Below are positions 47,703 through 58,037 of a DNA stretch of 64,000 nucleotides, in pieces (the first letter of the stretch is position 1; each line of letters opens with the position of its first letter). The stretch covers positions 1 through 64,000 of IMG/VR virus record IMGVR_UViG_3300028384_000657; one strand, 5' to 3'. The DNA comes from a virus. A model generated the notes under the pieces. That model was not told where the DNA came from. It saw only the letters and a program-made list of their open reading frames with translations, and searched no databases. The translations under genes were made by a program, and so were the position numbers.

Positions 47703-49996
47703 AAGAAATTCATGTAATCAAGCGTAGTGGTGAGAAAACACCCCTAGACCTTGATAAGATCCATGCAATGGCAGAACACGCCTGTAGAGGTCTTGCAGGT
47801 GTCTCTGAGAGTCAGGTTGAGATGAATGCCAACCTGCAATTTTTTGATGGTATTAAGACTTCGGACATTCAAGAAATCTTGATCCGTTCGGCAAATGATT
47901 TGATTTCCCTGGAGTCTCCAAACTATCAGTTTGTTGCTGCTCGTCTTCTCTTGTTTAGTTTGAGAAAGGCAGTGTACAATGGTCATCCTGATGGGCACCC
48001 TCCTTTACTAGAGCATGTCAAAAAGTGTGTGGACATGGGCGTCTATGATGATGGTATTCTCAGCAAATACTCTGAGGAGGAGTGGGAGAAACTGAATAGT
48101 TTCATGGATCATGACCGAGACTATTTGTTTACATATGCTGGCATTAGACAAGTAGCAGATAAATACCTTGTACAAGATAGAAGCAGTGGCGAAGTTTACG
48201 AAACGCCCCAGTTCATGTATATGATGGTGGCAGCGACACTGTTCCAAGATGATGATAAGTTCTATCGTCTCGAATACGTCAAAAAGTATTATGACGCAAT
48301 CTCCAAACACCGACTCAACATTCCCACACCTATCATGGCAGGGGTGCGAACTCCACTTCGACAATTTGCGAGCTGTGTTCTTGTTGATGTTGATGACACC
48401 CTCGATAGCATCTTTAGTAGCGACATGGCTATTGGTCACTACGTTGCACAACGTGCTGGTATCGGCATCAACGCAGGCAGAATCAGGGGTATCAACGCTA
48501 AAATCAGGGGCGGTGAAGTTCAGCACACAGGCGTTATTCCATTTCTCAAAAAGTTTGAGGCAACTGTCAGATGCTGCACTCAAAATGGAATCCGAGGTGG
48601 ATCAGCTACTGTCCACTTTCCAATCTGGCACCAAGAAATCCAAGACATCATCGTCCTAAAGAATAATAAAGGAACTGAGGACAACCGAGTCCGTAAGTTA
48701 GACTACAGTATTCAGTTCAGTAAACTCTTCTATGAGCGATTCATCTCCAACGGTATCATCTCCCTCTTCAGTCCTCACGACGTGCCAGGTCTTTATGATG
48801 CTTTTGGTACTGATTCATTTGATAGTCTCTATGTGGACTATGAATCAGATCTCTCTATTCCAAGACAGACTATCGGCGCTCAAGAACTCATTCTTAGTCT
48901 CCTGAAGGAGAGAGCAGAGACTGGTCGTATTTACATTATGAATATTGACCACTGTAATACTCACTCGTCCTTTAAGGATAAGGTTACTATGTCTAACCTT
49001 TGTCAGGAGATTACTCTTCCGACTGATCCTATCAATCATATTGATGGGTTGGGTGAGATTGCTTTGTGTATCCTGTCTGCTATCAACGTTGGTAAACTGA
49101 AGTCTCTTGATGAACTGGATGAACTGTGTGAACTGGCAGTTCGTGGTCTGGATGCTCTGATTGACTATCAGCAATATCCTGTTAAGGCAGCAGAGAATAG
49201 CACTAAGAATCGTCGCTCTCTTGGTATTGGGTTCATTGGTCTGGCACATTATCTTGCTAAGCATGGTGCCAACTATGATTCGCAGAAGGCGCATGACCTC
49301 GTTCATAAACTCACTGAGAGGTTCCAGTTTGCTCTTCTAACAGCGTCTAATCGTATGGCAATGGAGAAGGGTCCTTGCGGTTATTTTGGTAAAACCAAAT
49401 ACGCTGATGGAATACTTCCTATCGATACATATAAGAAGGAAGTGGACGAAATTGTACCGAATGATCTTTCATGTGATTGGGAATATCTCAGGGGACGGAT
49501 TGTTGAGTACGGACTACGGCACAGCACGTTGTCCGCACAGATGCCTTCGGAGAGCAGCTCCGTTGTGTCAAACGCTACCAATGGAATCGAGCCGCCTCGC
49601 GACTACTTGTCCGTTAAGAAATCAAAGAAAGGACCTCTTAAGCAAATTGTGCCATCTTATACAACCCTCAAGGGAGCATACACCCTCCTCTGGGACATGC
49701 ACAACAACGACGGATACATCAAAGTTACCGCCGTAATGCAGAAGTTCTTTGATCAGGCAATTAGTGGTAACTGGAGTTACAATCCAGAGAATTATTCTGA
49801 TAATGAAGTGCCTGTTTCTGAGATGGCAAAAGATCTTTTGACCACTTACAAGTATGGTTGGAAGACATCTTATTATCAAAACACATATGATAATAAGAAA
49901 GACGGAGAAGAGGTTGAACAAACTCCATCCGTAGATAATTTAATTGACCAACTTATCACAGAAGAGGAAGATGACTGCGAGTCCTGTAAAATCTGA
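47699..49996 (+). CDS. nrdA: class Ia ribonucleotide reductase alpha subunit
   Basis: ATP cone VIKRSG, PTPIMAG, FASCVL, SNLCQEI, MPSESSS, C-terminal CESCKI. Confidence 0.98.
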   Translation: MKEIHVIKRSGEKTPLDLDKIHAMAEHACRGLAGVSESQVEMNANLQFFDGIKTSDIQEILIRSANDLISLESPNYQFVAARLLLFSLRKAVYNGHPDGHPPLLEHVKKCVDMGVYDDGILSKYSEEEWEKLNSFMDHDRDYLFTYAGIRQVADKYLVQDRSSGEVYETPQFMYMMVAATLFQDDDKFYRLEYVKKYYDAISKHRLNIPTPIMAGVRTPLRQFASCVLVDVDDTLDSIFSSDMAIGHYVAQRAGIGINAGRIRGINAKIRGGEVQHTGVIPFLKKFEATVRCCTQNGIRGGSATVHFPIWHQEIQDIIVLKNNKGTEDNRVRKLDYSIQFSKLFYERFISNGIISLFSPHDVPGLYDAFGTDSFDSLYVDYESDLSIPRQTIGAQELILSLLKERAETGRIYIMNIDHCNTHSSFKDKVTMSNLCQEITLPTDPINHIDGLGEIALCILSAINVGKLKSLDELDELCELAVRGLDALIDYQQYPVKAAENSTKNRRSLGIGFIGLAHYLAKHGANYDSQKAHDLVHKLTERFQFALLTASNRMAMEKGPCGYFGKTKYADGILPIDTYKKEVDEIVPNDLSCDWEYLRGRIVEYGLRHSTLSAQMPSESSSVVSNATNGIEPPRDYLSVKKSKKGPLKQIVPSYTTLKGAYTLLWDMHNNDGYIKVTAVMQKFFDQAISGNWSYNPENYSDNEVPVSEMAKDLLTTYKYGWKTSYYQNTYDNKKDGEEVEQTPSVDNLIDQLITEEEDDCESCKI

Positions 49997-51137
49997 AGTA
50001 GAAGGAATGACCGTATTTAACAAAACCAAAGTAGACACAAAAAATCAACCTATGTTCTTTGGGCAACCTCTTGGTGTCCAAAGATATGACGAATATAAGT
50101 ATCCTGTATTTGACAAATTGACCCAGCAGCAACTGGGATATTTCTGGAGACCAGAAGAAGTATCATTACAAAAGGACCGCAGTGATTACCAAACTTTATC
50201 GGAACAGCAAAGGCACATTTTTACCAGCAATCTTAAATACCAAATCATGCTGGATTCTGTACAAGGGCGCGGTCCTGGGATGGCTTTTATCCCTTACTGC
50301 TCACTCCCTGAACTAGAAGCATGTATGACAGTATGGGAATTTATGGAGATGATCCATAGTCGTTCCTATACATATATTATTAAGAATGTATATTCTAATC
50401 CTGGTGATGTCTTTGACACTATCTTGGATGATGAGAATGTAATGTCTCGTGCCTCATCAGTTACTGAATCGTATGATAGTTTCATCGAACATGCTCATCA
50501 GTATGATGGCAGCACTATGTGGGATCTTGCAAGAGAAGGTCACCAGGGTGGACAATGGGAACGCCGTGAGTTGAAGCGTAAACTCTATAGAGCAATTGCT
50601 AATGTCAATATCCTCGAAGGAATCCGTTTCTATGTGTCGTTTGCGTGCTCGTTTGCTTTTGGCGAGAATAAACTTATGGAGGGCTCGGCTAAGATTCTCT
50701 CTCTTATCGCTAGAGATGAAAGCCAACACCTGGTTATCACGCAAAATATCCTCAGAAAATGGTCAGAAGGAGACGACCCAGAAATGAAACTGATTGCTCA
50801 GGAGGAGCAATCATATGTCACTGAAATGTTTAAGCGTACTGTAGAAGAAGAGAAAGCGTGGGCTAATTATCTTTTCAGAGATGGTAGTTTGATTGGACTT
50901 AACGATCGTTTGTTGTATAACTATGTTGAGTGGATTGCAAATCGTAGGATGAAGGCAGTCGGTATCAAACCGATTTACGACATTCCTGCAAAGAACAATC
51001 CTCTTCCTTGGACTGAGCACTGGCTCAATTCTAAGGGACAACAAAACGCACCTCAGGAAACGGAGATTGAATCGTATGTCGTCGGAGGAATTAAACAAGA
51101 TGTCACAGCAGGAACCTTCGCTGGATTCTCTTTGTGA
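49971..51137 (+). CDS. nrdB: ribonucleotide reductase beta subunit
   Basis: FWRPEEV, EMIHSRSY, LEGIRFY, RDESQH, APQETE. Confidence 0.98.
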   Translation: MTASPVKSEVEGMTVFNKTKVDTKNQPMFFGQPLGVQRYDEYKYPVFDKLTQQQLGYFWRPEEVSLQKDRSDYQTLSEQQRHIFTSNLKYQIMLDSVQGRGPGMAFIPYCSLPELEACMTVWEFMEMIHSRSYTYIIKNVYSNPGDVFDTILDDENVMSRASSVTESYDSFIEHAHQYDGSTMWDLAREGHQGGQWERRELKRKLYRAIANVNILEGIRFYVSFACSFAFGENKLMEGSAKILSLIARDESQHLVITQNILRKWSEGDDPEMKLIAQEEQSYVTEMFKRTVEEEKAWANYLFRDGSLIGLNDRLLYNYVEWIANRRMKAVGIKPIYDIPAKNNPLPWTEHWLNSKGQQNAPQETEIESYVVGGIKQDVTAGTFAGFSL

Positions 51138-51381
51138 AGATGCTATCTATGATGCAGCAGAACATGGTTGGGATGATCTTTTAGATAAGACAGACCAACC
51201 TGGTAACCCCTTTGCAGAAGACCTTTGGGAAATGGAAAAGAAAAAAGCACAACAGCAAGAACGTAACACTCGACACAGTGTTGATAAGGGTAAAGATTTT
51301 ATTGAATCTGGTATGACCCTTATCACTGATGTAGAATCTGACAAATACTTAAACAGAAATCGTAAAACGGTATCAGATTGA
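51100..51381 (+). CDS. hypothetical protein
   Basis: Acidic ORF overlapping nrdB end; SGMTLITD motif. Confidence 0.6.
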   Translation: MSQQEPSLDSLCEDAIYDAAEHGWDDLLDKTDQPGNPFAEDLWEMEKKKAQQQERNTRHSVDKGKDFIESGMTLITDVESDKYLNRNRKTVSD

Positions 51382-51428
51382 ACTACATTTATTGTGAATT
51401 CATGGTATAAATATAAATGTAGCAATAC

Positions 51429-51444
51429 TGTATTAGTCGCTACA
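51429..51444 (+). promoter_or_regulatory. NtcA-binding site downstream of TATAAATA (repressor position)
   Basis: TGTA-TTAGTCGC-TACA is a perfect TGTA-N8-TACA; TATAAATA at about 51406. Confidence 0.7.
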
Positions 51445-51684
51445 ACTTATACGTTCATCCAATGTTTAGTATCTTACTGGCATTGACCCTTGCCCATCAT
51501 AATGACGGGTCACCTTATGGGTGGCACATGAGTTGTGAAAGGTTTCTACAGAGAAGAGTTGAAATCCTTATGGATGACAACTTAGATCGTCGCACCAAGT
51601 ATAACCTTATTGGTTATCTTAAGTCGAAGGTAGAAGGTCAGTGTGATAGTATGCTAATCTAGGACGCAAGTAAGTCGCGGAACG
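51445..51684 (+). ncRNA. glutamine-riboswitch-like aptamer 1 (glnA/Downstream-peptide family), P2 loop containing ORF 51462-51662
   Basis: CGTTCA-TCC (51452-60) ... GGA-CGCAAGTAAGTCGCG-GAACG (51662-84); P1 CGTTC/GAACG. Confidence 0.6.
51462..51662 (+). CDS. small two-Cys protein nested in aptamer 1
   Basis: MFSILLALTLA...SCERF...GQC, 66 aa. Confidence 0.65.
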   Translation: MFSILLALTLAHHNDGSPYGWHMSCERFLQRRVEILMDDNLDRRTKYNLIGYLKSKVEGQCDSMLI

Positions 51685-51687
51685 GAG

Positions 51688-51866
51688 CGTTCATCCCATG
51701 TTTGAGTTATTACTCTATTCTAATATTGCTTGTGCTGATGCTATCGAAATGATCGAGCGTATCAGCAAACATGAGCATATGGAAGCAGCAATCAGGACAG
51801 AGCTTATTGAAGTAATTCAAGAAGCAACCCCCGAGTGTCCATGGGACGCAAACGACTGAAGGAACG
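51688..51866 (+). ncRNA. glutamine-riboswitch-like aptamer 2, P2 loop containing ORF 51698-51859
   Basis: CGTTCA-TCCCATG (51688-700) ... CATGGGA-CGCAAACGACTGAAG-GAACG (51840-66); perfect 7-bp P2. Confidence 0.68.
51698..51859 (+). CDS. small two-Cys protein nested in aptamer 2 (53 aa, not in ORF track)
   Basis: MFELLLYSNIACADAIEMIERISKHEHMEAAIRTELIEVIQEATPECPWDAND. Confidence 0.65.
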   Translation: MFELLLYSNIACADAIEMIERISKHEHMEAAIRTELIEVIQEATPECPWDAND

Positions 51867-51925
51867 GGTAACGGATCCTCCGAGAGGAGAGAAGGTTAAT
51901 CACCCTATTATTTCAGGAGTCAATT

Positions 51926-52093
51926 ATGAACACCCTCAATCTCATTAGAAAGCAGATCAATAAAGCATCTGCCCTTCACGACGCACAGATCTTTCATACC
52001 ACATACCGTGGTGTCAAGTACGATGTAAACTGTGCTGAGCAAAAGGATGCCCATGGCACCTATTGCTATCGTGGACATGTCTATATCAAGTGA
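51926..52093 (+). CDS. DUF4278-like small protein (55 aa, not in ORF track)
   Basis: AGGAG RBS; TYRGVKY and CYRGHVY repeats. Confidence 0.75.
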   Translation: MNTLNLIRKQINKASALHDAQIFHTTYRGVKYDVNCAEQKDAHGTYCYRGHVYIK

Positions 52094-52100
52094 GGTAGAC

Positions 52101-52196
52101 ATGTTAGCACTACAAACAGTCGGATTGGTGTCTGTTGGATGTGTAGCATTCATCGGCATGATCTATGGAGAACTTATCCTTTTACAAAGAGTATAA
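52101..52196 (+). CDS. 31-aa single-TM peptide
   Basis: GAGG RBS; MLALQTVGLVSVGCVAFIGMIYGELILLQRV. Confidence 0.55.
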   Translation: MLALQTVGLVSVGCVAFIGMIYGELILLQRV

Positions 52197-52208
52197 GGAG
52201 TAGGACAA

Positions 52209-52367
52209 ATGCTGAAGGTCAGACTCGAATATGACCTTCCAGAATTTGATCCAGCGAAACACGATCCAGATAAAACGTTCGCGTTTTTAACTTATCGTGG
52301 CATACACTATGCTAAATGGGTTAATCTAAAACCCTTTGGTAGCAAATCCTGGAAGATCAAATTTTGA
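52209..52367 (+). CDS. second DUF4278-like small protein (52 aa)
   Basis: AGGAG RBS; LTYRGIHY motif. Confidence 0.62.
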   Translation: MLKVRLEYDLPEFDPAKHDPDKTFAFLTYRGIHYAKWVNLKPFGSKSWKIKF

Positions 52368-52377
52368 TTTCCACACA

Positions 52378-52401
52378 AAGGACCCAAACGGGTCCTTTTT
52401 T
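52378..52401 (+). terminator. terminator closing the nitrogen-regulated locus
   Basis: AAGGACCC-AAAC-GGGTCCTT plus T run. Confidence 0.85.
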
Positions 52402-53882: not shown

Positions 53883-54047
53883 ATGCACATCGACTTTGAA
53901 CCTGAAACTGAAACCTCTCTTGAGGAACAGTATCTAGATCAACTCATCGATCAACTTCACACTCTCGCTGAGAGAGGATTTGAAGAAGACGCTAAGCGTC
54001 TCAATGTGTCTATCAACTCTGCCCATAAGATTCTAATGGGTCAGTAG
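53883..54047 (+). CDS. small hypothetical protein whose last codons overlap the tRNA
   Basis: 54-aa ORF MHIDFEPE...KILMGQ with GAGGG RBS. Confidence 0.55.
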   Translation: MHIDFEPETETSLEEQYLDQLIDQLHTLAERGFEEDAKRLNVSINSAHKILMGQ

Positions 54048-54110
54048 TTCAGCGGATAGAACAACGCTCTTCTAAAGCGTTTGTCGGGGGTTCGATTCCC
54101 TCCTGACCCG
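54038..54110 (+). tRNA. tRNA-Arg(TCT)
   Basis: GGGTCAG/CTGACCC acceptor stem, D arm, ACGCT-CTTCTAA-AGCGT anticodon arm, GGTTCGATTCC T loop; no encoded CCA. Confidence 0.93.
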
Positions 54111-57910: not shown

Positions 57911-57933
57911 CATCGCTTTTCCTTTATACTACT

Positions 57934-58037
57934 CCCCGCAAACCGAGACCTCTAGGGAGTCAAAATTACGTCTCTCATACCTCTGCTTAGGGTGCAGAGG
58001 AATAGTAACTCCACCATGTCCCTGATGGTCTTACTTA
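57934..58037 (+). ncRNA. PhotoRC-II-like structured RNA in psbA leader
   Basis: GAGAC/GTCTC, CCTCTGC/GCAGAGG and ACCAT/ATGGT stems directly upstream of a cyanophage psbA. Confidence 0.7.

Follow-up and report, generated by a model that had tools for sequence, protein, structure and literature searches.

CP12 is a small redox switch of the Calvin cycle that operates through pairs of cysteines (Cys), and cyanobacteria offer well-known examples of redox-switched Cys pairs in the cytoplasm. The protein is largely disordered and carries two short-range Cys pairs and an AWD_VEEL core. It is found in hosts and in cyanophages, next to talC, and sets a precedent for a cytoplasmic redox-switchable Cys pair (PMC7760959). 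The DUF4278 proteins IF17 and IF17-like are encoded by genes placed under glutamine-riboswitch control in cyanobacteria (PMC6212724), and glnA RNAs are known in cyanophages and in tandem (PMC2864571, PMC9964418). Here we analyze two small open reading frames (ORFs), ORF1 and ORF2, found in a stretch of 64,000 nucleotides (nt), hereafter the window (positions 1 to 64,000 of IMG/VR record IMGVR_UViG_3300028384_000657), which is part of the 74-kb record of a T4-like Synechococcus cyanophage. We consider it reasonably likely that they encode two real cytoplasmic microproteins belonging to one ancient two-Cys family and lodged in glutamine-riboswitch loops ahead of IF17-like genes.

The locus shares some properties with each of these systems. 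Like CP12, ORF1 and ORF2 are small phage-borne proteins with conserved paired Cys, encoded in a neighbourhood of metabolic takeover genes (nrdB, talC). In contrast to CP12, they gave no match to the Pfam CP12 family up to E 10 and possess one long-range pair, 35-36 residues apart, predicted to close a folded hairpin. With IF7/IF17 and the IF17-like DUF4278 proteins (gifA/gifB) they have in common a small size and transcripts bearing glutamine aptamer sequence (putative for ORF1 and ORF2) of glnA or Downstream-peptide type (PMC6212724); moreover, the DUF4278/YRG-like genes ORF3 and ORF4 are located in the same operon as ORF1 and ORF2. However, neither ORF1 nor ORF2 matched PF14105 up to E 10 or carries a YRG motif, both are predicted to be helical and not IF-like, and they lie inside the aptamer loops whereas IF17-like genes are located downstream of the aptamer. 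Twin-CX9C domains (CHCH) and plant alpha-hairpinins are likewise antiparallel helix-turn-helix structures with Cys positioned to tie the helices, but these eukaryotic proteins use two disulfides formed from CX9C or CX3C motifs within the helices, in contrast to the single open-end pair of ORF1 and ORF2. Sequence and fold searches returned no sequence or specific fold match of the two families to these disulfide-stapled hairpin families.

Two small genes with a conserved cysteine pair

ORF1 and ORF2 are arranged in tandem, 35 nt apart and without overlap:

51462..51662, + strand: ORF1, 66 amino acids (aa), predicted two-Cys three-helix microprotein (phrog_6471), Cys at C25 and C61
51698..51859, + strand: ORF2, 53 aa, predicted two-Cys three-helix microprotein (phrog_504), Cys at C12 and C47

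An earlier note on this DNA, made from the letters alone, had drawn attention to two ORFs with MF.(I/L)LL starts and exactly two Cys 35-36 residues apart, and the ORF list bears this out: the N-termini read MFSILL (ORF1) and MFELLL (ORF2), and the only two Cys are separated by 36 residues in ORF1 and by 35 in ORF2. Both ORFs match catalogued families over their full length, ORF1 phrog_6471 (E 2.2e-38, all 66 residues against all 66 profile positions) and ORF2 phrog_504 (E 1.8e-23, all 53 residues against all 53 profile positions), the latter membership being reproduced in the window's own record. In the isolate Syn19 they are annotated as hypothetical proteins, Syn19_186 (T4-GC 936) for ORF1 and Syn19_187 (T4-GC 430) for ORF2. 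Other members, also hypothetical in isolates, belong to GC 430/541 and GC 936/429 and include syn9 gp196 (ORF1 family), PHM1_180 and PHM1_179. Both families are thus catalogued yet uncharacterised, and are treated there as two unrelated families; the catalogue entries mention neither a link between them nor the invariant Cys pair, the riboswitch loops or the RNA-dictated C-terminus.

Homologous clusters numbered 127 for ORF1 and, at close range, 42 for ORF2; a profile search of 1.84 billion representatives collected 133 ORF2-type clusters at 50% identity, with length and pattern retained. By tblastn, ORF2 was detected in 227 phage records and ORF1 in 57, all of them from cyanophages or marine viruses. 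Hidden Markov models (HMMs) of both families detected no further copy of either ORF in the 74-kb record, and searches of Pfam, NCBIfam and PDB sequences with 65 family members pointed to no known family. A match to UPF0147 (E 0.003), below the cut-off and confined to two members, was discarded. No cellular relatives were found in two pattern scans of 185,579 species genomes, scans which reach close relatives only. An unannotated ORF1-like coding sequence with both Cys is present between hli and psbA in the T7-like Prochlorococcus podovirus P-GSP1 (L085:692-850), with no riboswitch motif nearby; the family therefore crosses phage morphotypes.

Codon statistics show that ORF1 and ORF2 are genuine conserved genes under purifying selection. 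All 82 loci keep an intact ORF2 frame, and ORF1 forms intact ORFs of 65-68 codons in 39 loci. Entropy is highest at the third codon position and lowest at the second for both genes (third, first and second positions, respectively: 0.86, 0.44 and 0.21 in ORF1; 1.13, 0.80 and 0.43 in ORF2). The Nei-Gojobori dN/dS, the ratio of nonsynonymous to synonymous change, is 0.13 for ORF1 and 0.35 for ORF2 (codons 4-47). Similarly, Cys codons alternate while the residue is fixed (C12 TGT 37/TGC 27; C47 54/10; C61 TGC 7/TGT 6). Frame shifts or truncations near the 3′ end occur in some metagenomic representatives; as several of these sequences carry adapter-like tails, the defects look like assembly artefacts, and real variants may also occur among them.

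In each family, nothing is more strongly conserved than the Cys pair. In 70 ORF1 homologs C25 is invariant and C61 at least 90% conserved, and in 39 close ORF2 homologs both C12 and C47 are invariant. In an alignment of 65 diverse ORF2-type sequences, where column identity averages 31%, no column other than C12 and C47 is invariant. Broadening the ORF1 family with P-HM1, S-TIM4, AG-345-L05, an IMG/VR clade of ~40% identity and the podovirus P-GSP1 copy left W21, C25, K56, V57 and C61 as its only invariant columns.

AlphaFold2 models built with family alignments placed three helices in each protein, at residues 2-12, 25-37 and 43-54 in ORF1 (pLDDT, the predicted local confidence, 82.5) and at residues 2-7, 12-24 and 30-43 in ORF2 (pLDDT 85.5). 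The predicted topology is common to both: an N-terminal helix, a 13-residue helix 2 of which the first Cys is the first residue (N-cap), a 5-residue turn, helix 3 of 12-14 residues, and the second Cys 4-7 residues beyond. ORF1 differs by a 13-residue insertion, a His/Trp-rich loop (AHH..PYGWHM), between helix 1 and the first Cys. In these models both Cys would lie at the same open end of an antiparallel hairpin, an arrangement which fits a clamp, and a disulfide and a metal site appear equally possible. A metal site is conceivable in the main ORF1 clade because of conserved His near the first Cys (H12, H13 and H22). In a Foldseek search against viral models (BFVD), each protein's own family ranked first; the ORF1 list continued with the ORF2-family entries A0A0E3FV70, E3SR83 and UPI0023292A76 and also with E3ST30, presumably the ORF2-like protein of P-HM2 (E 0.5-1.3 and probabilities 0.77-0.92 for the matches of ORF1 to the ORF2 family), and the same entries head the ORF2 list. 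Complex prediction of an ORF2 homodimer gave a score of 0.02, which counts neither for nor against a dimer.

The earlier note had drawn a helix-turn-helix between the two Cys, had called for structure prediction and for dN/dS across phages, and had held that unrelated folds, non-conserved Cys or frequent frame disruption in homologs would speak against it. On all these points the results go its way: AlphaFold2 predicts the helix-turn-helix for both ORFs and the same topology, selection is purifying, frames are kept, and the Cys pair is clearly invariant across diverse families.

Nesting of ORF1 and ORF2 in riboswitch-like units

Each gene is enclosed by the two halves of a riboswitch-like unit, and the elements succeed each other as follows:

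51452..51460, + strand: unit 1, 5′ half (CGTTCATCC), directly before the ORF1 start codon
51662..51685, + strand: unit 1, 3′ half (GGACGCAAGTAAGTCGCGGAACGG), starting on the final base of the ORF1 stop codon
51684..51687, + strand: GGAG, Shine-Dalgarno-like, between the units and 10 nt before the ORF2 ATG, conserved in nearly all aligned loci
51688..51697, + strand: unit 2, 5′ half (CGTTCATCCC), directly before the ORF2 start codon
51843..51867, + strand: unit 2, 3′ half (GGGACGCAAACGACTGAAGGAACGG), overlapping ORF2 codons W49-D53 and the stop codon

We examined this nesting in 80 aligned IMG/VR loci with an ORF2 homolog, and in further loci selected through ORF3 (see below). About half of the 80 loci have no ORF1, and ORF2 is there preceded by CGTTCATCCC, a 4-8-nt loop and GGGACGCAAGTAAGTCGCGGAACG. 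In such relatives the unit-1 5′ motif opens a compact aptamer resembling RF01739/RF01704; the ORF1-less unit stayed below the gathering scores of 35 bits for RF01739 and 33 bits for RF01704, with 25.7-32.1 and 23.2-29.4 bits, respectively, and its P2 hairpin covaries freely. In ORF1-bearing loci the gene exactly replaces the P2 loop, and the P2 strands on either side of it show covariation from lineage to lineage (CTCAC/GTGAG, CTTATG/CATAAG, CCTAA/TTAGG and CCAAATG/CATTTGG). ORF2 is likewise enclosed by the second unit (CGTTCATCCC-ATG ... CCATGGGACGCAAACGAC-TGA-AGGAACGG), where the P2 pairing is CCCATG/CATGGG or CCCA/TGGG in all loci and changes are wobble-preserving only. L106, L122 and L146 contain neither ORF, and the two units there are compact hairpins. 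The two-ORF arrangement is shared by Prochlorococcus phage P-HM1, S-TIM4 and a single-cell virus. The term 'nested' used in the earlier note is thus true of RNA loops, at the P2 position of units resembling glnA-type glutamine riboswitches; neither ORF lies inside the other. A limited literature search disclosed no published precedent for protein genes inside aptamer loops.

The criteria applied for a glnA-type RNA were the features of RF01739: P1 CGUUC/GGAACG, a P2 hairpin, the ACG-AAGUA and GAAGGAACG joining strands, and a score equal to or above the gathering score. The sole above-threshold match (39.3 bits, gathering score 35) was obtained in the ORF-less locus L122 (576-670). It spans both units, with AAGUA contributed by unit 1 and AAAGGAACG by unit 2. 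Unit 1 of this locus has ACGCAAGUA and is devoid of GAA before GGAACG, and unit 2 has GAAGGAACG but ACGCAAACG; the E-loop halves thus seem to be split between the units. Since the match crosses from one unit to the other, the tandem units may be one composite or interlocked aptamer and not two independent ones, which, by analogy, may apply to 51452-51867 of the window.

Two further observations concern these units. A ~45-nt non-coding insertion with no tight hairpin is present in the unit-1 P2 loop of L119 and L127, where ORF1 is absent; it may be a structured extension or the remnant of a deleted gene. Many ORF2-type database gene calls (P0170, P0179, P0197, P0208, P0264 and others) have false N-terminal extensions, e.g. 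..WDASKSRNGAVHPM, which are translated upstream aptamer, and P0264 is a single-frame fusion of the ORF1 C-terminus, the aptamer and ORF2.

The end of ORF2 consists of codons TGG GAC GCA AAC GAC followed by TGA or TAA (WDAND*), with almost no synonymous change in 64 unique sequences: codons 50 (GAC) and 51 (GCA) are identical in all 64, and codon 52 (AAC) in 60 of them. The same nucleotides are also present where ORF2 is absent (L106, L122). On the other hand, ORF2-type proteins of phages without the riboswitch motif (L088-L102) have a different ending after the second Cys, and no WDAND. Near-fixed nucleotides that persist without the gene, and a tail that is missing without the riboswitch, point to an imprint of the aptamer core: to judge from these sequences, WDAND is imposed by the RNA and not by protein function. 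Divergent ORF1 proteins run into the core of their own unit in another frame, GGA CGC AAG TAA (GRK-stop). As the WDAND of ORF2 illustrates, one can misread conservation in a small protein.

Common ancestry and alternative explanations

The paralogy of the two ORFs had been put forward in the earlier note together with a hand alignment, and a profile-profile comparison had been called for. Using hhalign, the narrow ORF1 profile (A1) aligned to a 65-member ORF2 superfamily profile (A3) with a probability of 64% and E 6.5e-5, and a broadened ORF1 profile (A5) aligned to A3 with 87.8% and E 3.3e-6; the score climbs with added profile diversity. The alignment of A5 and A3 covers 48 columns from Met1 to the second Cys, with one 13-residue gap and both Cys aligned. 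With diverse profiles the N-terminal M-x-x-LLL helix, both hairpin helices and both Cys fall in one register, which is the register of the hand alignment. The controls hold: compared with a real score of 24.9, 200 column shuffles of the ORF1 alignment reached 21.2 at most (median 9.3), reversed profiles 12.9-14.1, and four other small-ORF families of the same operon 6.7-9.2. After masking of the Cys (X or Ala) the score was still 17.9-20.1 and the register unchanged. Of the ORF2-type sequences, those lacking the riboswitch-coded WDAND tail aligned with 82.7% (E 9e-6) and those possessing it with 83.4%; the two ORF1 clades taken singly gave 49.5% and 59%. We conclude that ORF1 and ORF2 probably share a distant common ancestry as remote paralogs, for which the profile comparison provides moderate-to-good support but no proof.

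Several results weigh against this conclusion or against other parts of our interpretation. BLASTP yielded no alignment of ORF1 with ORF2 up to E 100, hhalign with narrow close-homolog profiles dropped to 0.5% (E 0.12), and an HMM-versus-sequence search of 5,440 six-frame ORFs gave a best cross-family score of 11.7 bits (E 0.05), which is not significant. The direct pairwise similarity that had been read from the hand alignment was thus not upheld on its own, and homology rests on profile-profile probabilities of 65-88%, none above 95%. The Foldseek cross-matches are individually weak (E ~1). As to the Cys pair, its proximity is deduced from topology only, and a family-wide His2Cys2 site was rejected, the His not being kept in all ORF1 clades. 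ORF1 has no Shine-Dalgarno sequence. At the RNA level, contiguous unit-1 P2 pairing across ORF1 is limited to CC/GG in this window, and therefore the unit-1 fold may be weak here; an Rfam search of the window detected no glutamine-riboswitch match at either unit, because the ORFs interrupt the P2 of the model.

The failure of BLASTP, of narrow profiles and of the HMM-versus-sequence search to link the two ORFs would be accounted for if two unrelated families had converged on a Cys-ended helical hairpin and had been captured independently in neighbouring riboswitch loops. Convergence would also agree with their separate PHROGs and separate T4-like gene clusters, with the generic helical matches that dominate fold searches, and with the different end frames of the ORF1 variants (GGA CGC AAG TAA) and of ORF2 (TGG GAC GCA AAC GAC TGA). 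We nevertheless find it rather unlikely. Diverse profiles align full-length in one register with E 3e-6 to 9e-6, the signal persists when the Cys are masked but disappears on shuffling or reversal and is not seen with the four other small-ORF families, and it would be a striking accident if look-alikes had been captured twice at corresponding loops of neighbouring units. A further alternative, that the ORFs are not functional proteins and that the locus is a conserved RNA with a large structured P2 insertion, whose frames are incidental or translated spacers, seems scarcely credible. It is true that both ORF ends are RNA-constrained, with WDAND dictated by the aptamer, and that the P2 insertions of ~45 nt in L119 and L127 are non-coding. 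However, third codon positions are the most variable and second positions the least, dN/dS is 0.13 and 0.35, Cys codons alternate, riboswitch-free homologs of both families keep the Cys pair, and 133 diverse clusters keep length and pattern. On these codon statistics, we rejected the view that conservation stems from non-coding RNA alone.

The earlier note had also suggested that the products are exported, and indeed hydrophobic N-termini and two invariant Cys, which would suit an oxidising compartment, could be expected of secreted or membrane-targeted disulfide-stapled effectors. We inspected the sequences for a basic n-region, an h-region of 7-15 residues, and an AxA site or an L-[AS]-[GA]-C lipobox. 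ORF1 is the less clear case: it starts with 10 hydrophobic residues followed by T-L-A/H-H, loosely like a signal-peptidase site, but has no basic n-region. The ORF2 superfamily has only 11 residues before the first Cys, with almost always Glu/Asp at position 3 and no basic residue, and the residues that precede this Cys (polar at -3, Leu/Ile at -2, then Ala/Ser/Thr/Asn) do not match a lipobox. Moreover, no hydrophobic stretch has membrane-spanning length, in the AlphaFold2 models the N-terminus is a helix of a single small helical domain and not a detached leader, and redox-switched Cys pairs of the CP12 kind exist in the cyanobacterial cytoplasm. The lipoprotein or signal-peptide interpretation was rejected on these sequence features; export is very improbable, and the ORF1 and ORF2 products are presumably cytoplasmic.

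The last proposal of the earlier note was that aptamer and ORF had been duplicated as one cassette and had then diverged. Paralogy is supported, as described above, but joint duplication is only plausible. In its favour, there is hardly another explanation for paralogs that occupy matching loops in two adjacent units, and the nested pair could, at a guess, have arisen by unequal recombination between repeated aptamer halves. Against taking it as proven, forms without any ORF (the tandem units of L106, L122 and L146) and with ORF2 only exist, both families occur outside riboswitches (L088-L102; P-GSP1), the 3′ ends of ORF1 and ORF2 are in different frames relative to the aptamer core, and the 3′ halves of units 1 and 2 differ and are each conserved on their own. 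Mapped on a tree of ORF2 sequences, the presence of ORF1 implies at least 9 changes, at least 5 of which are forced by supported branches (19-31 changes with shuffled labels). The module has therefore been repeatedly gained, lost or exchanged.

Gene neighbourhood and proposed role

ORF1 and ORF2 are located between nrdB (49944-51137) and talC (from ~52439), within a run of small genes in the order phrog_1336 ORF, ORF1, ORF2, ORF3, small hydrophobic ORF, ORF4 and a terminator-like hairpin. The nearest isolates, Syn19 and Syn2, show 89% nucleotide identity over 51000-52400. The other members of this run are:

51067-51381: phrog_1336 ORF, upstream of ORF1
51926..52093, + strand: ORF3, 55 aa, YRG/DUF4278-like (IF17-like), phrog_545 (E 6e-32)
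52101..52196, + strand: small hydrophobic ORF, ~31 aa, between ORF3 and ORF4, conserved across many loci (tblastn)
52209..52367, + strand: ORF4, 52 aa, second YRG-motif protein, phrog_6192
52380..52401, + strand: GC-rich hairpin with a T-run after it, likely to terminate the small-gene operon ahead of talC (sequence inspection)

ORF3 is the next gene after ORF2 in most loci, and a gene of ORF3 or ORF4 type follows ORF2 in nearly all. The match of ORF3 to Pfam DUF4278 (PF14105) is weak (E 3e-4, 21.5 bits, under the cut-off of 25.3). ORF3 carries two YRG motifs and ORF4 one, and both are IF17-like candidates. The terminator-like hairpin is overlapped by a weak Rfam match to a small RNA.

Other sequence features surround these genes. 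A T4-type late-promoter-like sequence (TATAAATA) is found at 51406-51413, and a perfect TGTA-N8-TACA, NtcA-box-like, at 51429-51444, just upstream of unit 1; the latter is retained in Syn19 but missing from several other ORF1-bearing loci, which have different inverted repeats there. The spacer between unit 2 and ORF3 (51860-51925 in the window) exists in two forms across loci, short (~40 nt) and long (~67 nt), both terminating in AGGAG, the Shine-Dalgarno sequence for ORF3. The long form, present in this window, contains a covarying hairpin, GGATCCTCC-GAGA-GGAGAGAAGG, followed by GGTTAATCACCC, like a degenerate third aptamer half. Elsewhere the window includes a PhotoRC-II RNA (78.9 bits) at 57919-58013 and a tRNA gene at 54038-54110.

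We propose a model in which the short hydrophobic N-terminal helix of both proteins would pack on the antiparallel helical hairpin. The Cys pair at the open end of this hairpin (helix 2 N-cap and just after helix 3) would clamp it, most likely by a reversible disulfide or, alternatively, would form part of a metal site. ORF1 would be a divergent copy of an ORF2-type protein with a 13-residue insertion. In marine T4-like cyanophages, both genes would occupy the variable P2 loops of two adjacent glnA-type units preceding IF17-like genes, a position from which they would be transcribed, and probably translated, under glutamine control. Made together with the IF17-like proteins when glutamine is high, they might take part with them in remodelling host nitrogen and redox metabolism. 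Operon context makes ORF1 and ORF2 likely partners in a glutamine-controlled IF17-like operon.

A more speculative scheme, which we put forward tentatively and consider possible but doubtful, is that these two-Cys microprotein genes have become built into a metabolite-sensing RNA. The start codon of each ORF would be in the aptamer 5′ strand, and the last five codons and the stop codon of ORF2 coincide with the aptamer core. The same nucleotides would encode the ORF2 tail and the ligand-binding fold, and the aptamer could not fold while the gene nested in it is being translated, or the gene be translated while the aptamer is folded. The result would be a translation-coupled, glutamine-gated switch over the IF17-like genes, in a unit that spreads by recombination of aptamer halves.

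The relationship between ORF1 and ORF2, the Cys-pair signature, the RNA-imposed C-terminus and the documentation of genes in riboswitch loops are new here. The analysis establishes two of the many conserved hypothetical small genes of marine cyanophages as real genes and ties them together, with probable common ancestry, and the family extends beyond marine phages. Its single Cys pair is a family-defining and directly testable feature. To our knowledge, only CP12 and a few auxiliary genes are understood in the phage control of host nitrogen and redox metabolism; an operon shared with IF17-like genes, between nrdB and talC, makes ORF1 and ORF2 candidates for such control. If functional, the placement of genes within aptamer loops would represent a novel means of coupling translation to metabolite sensing.

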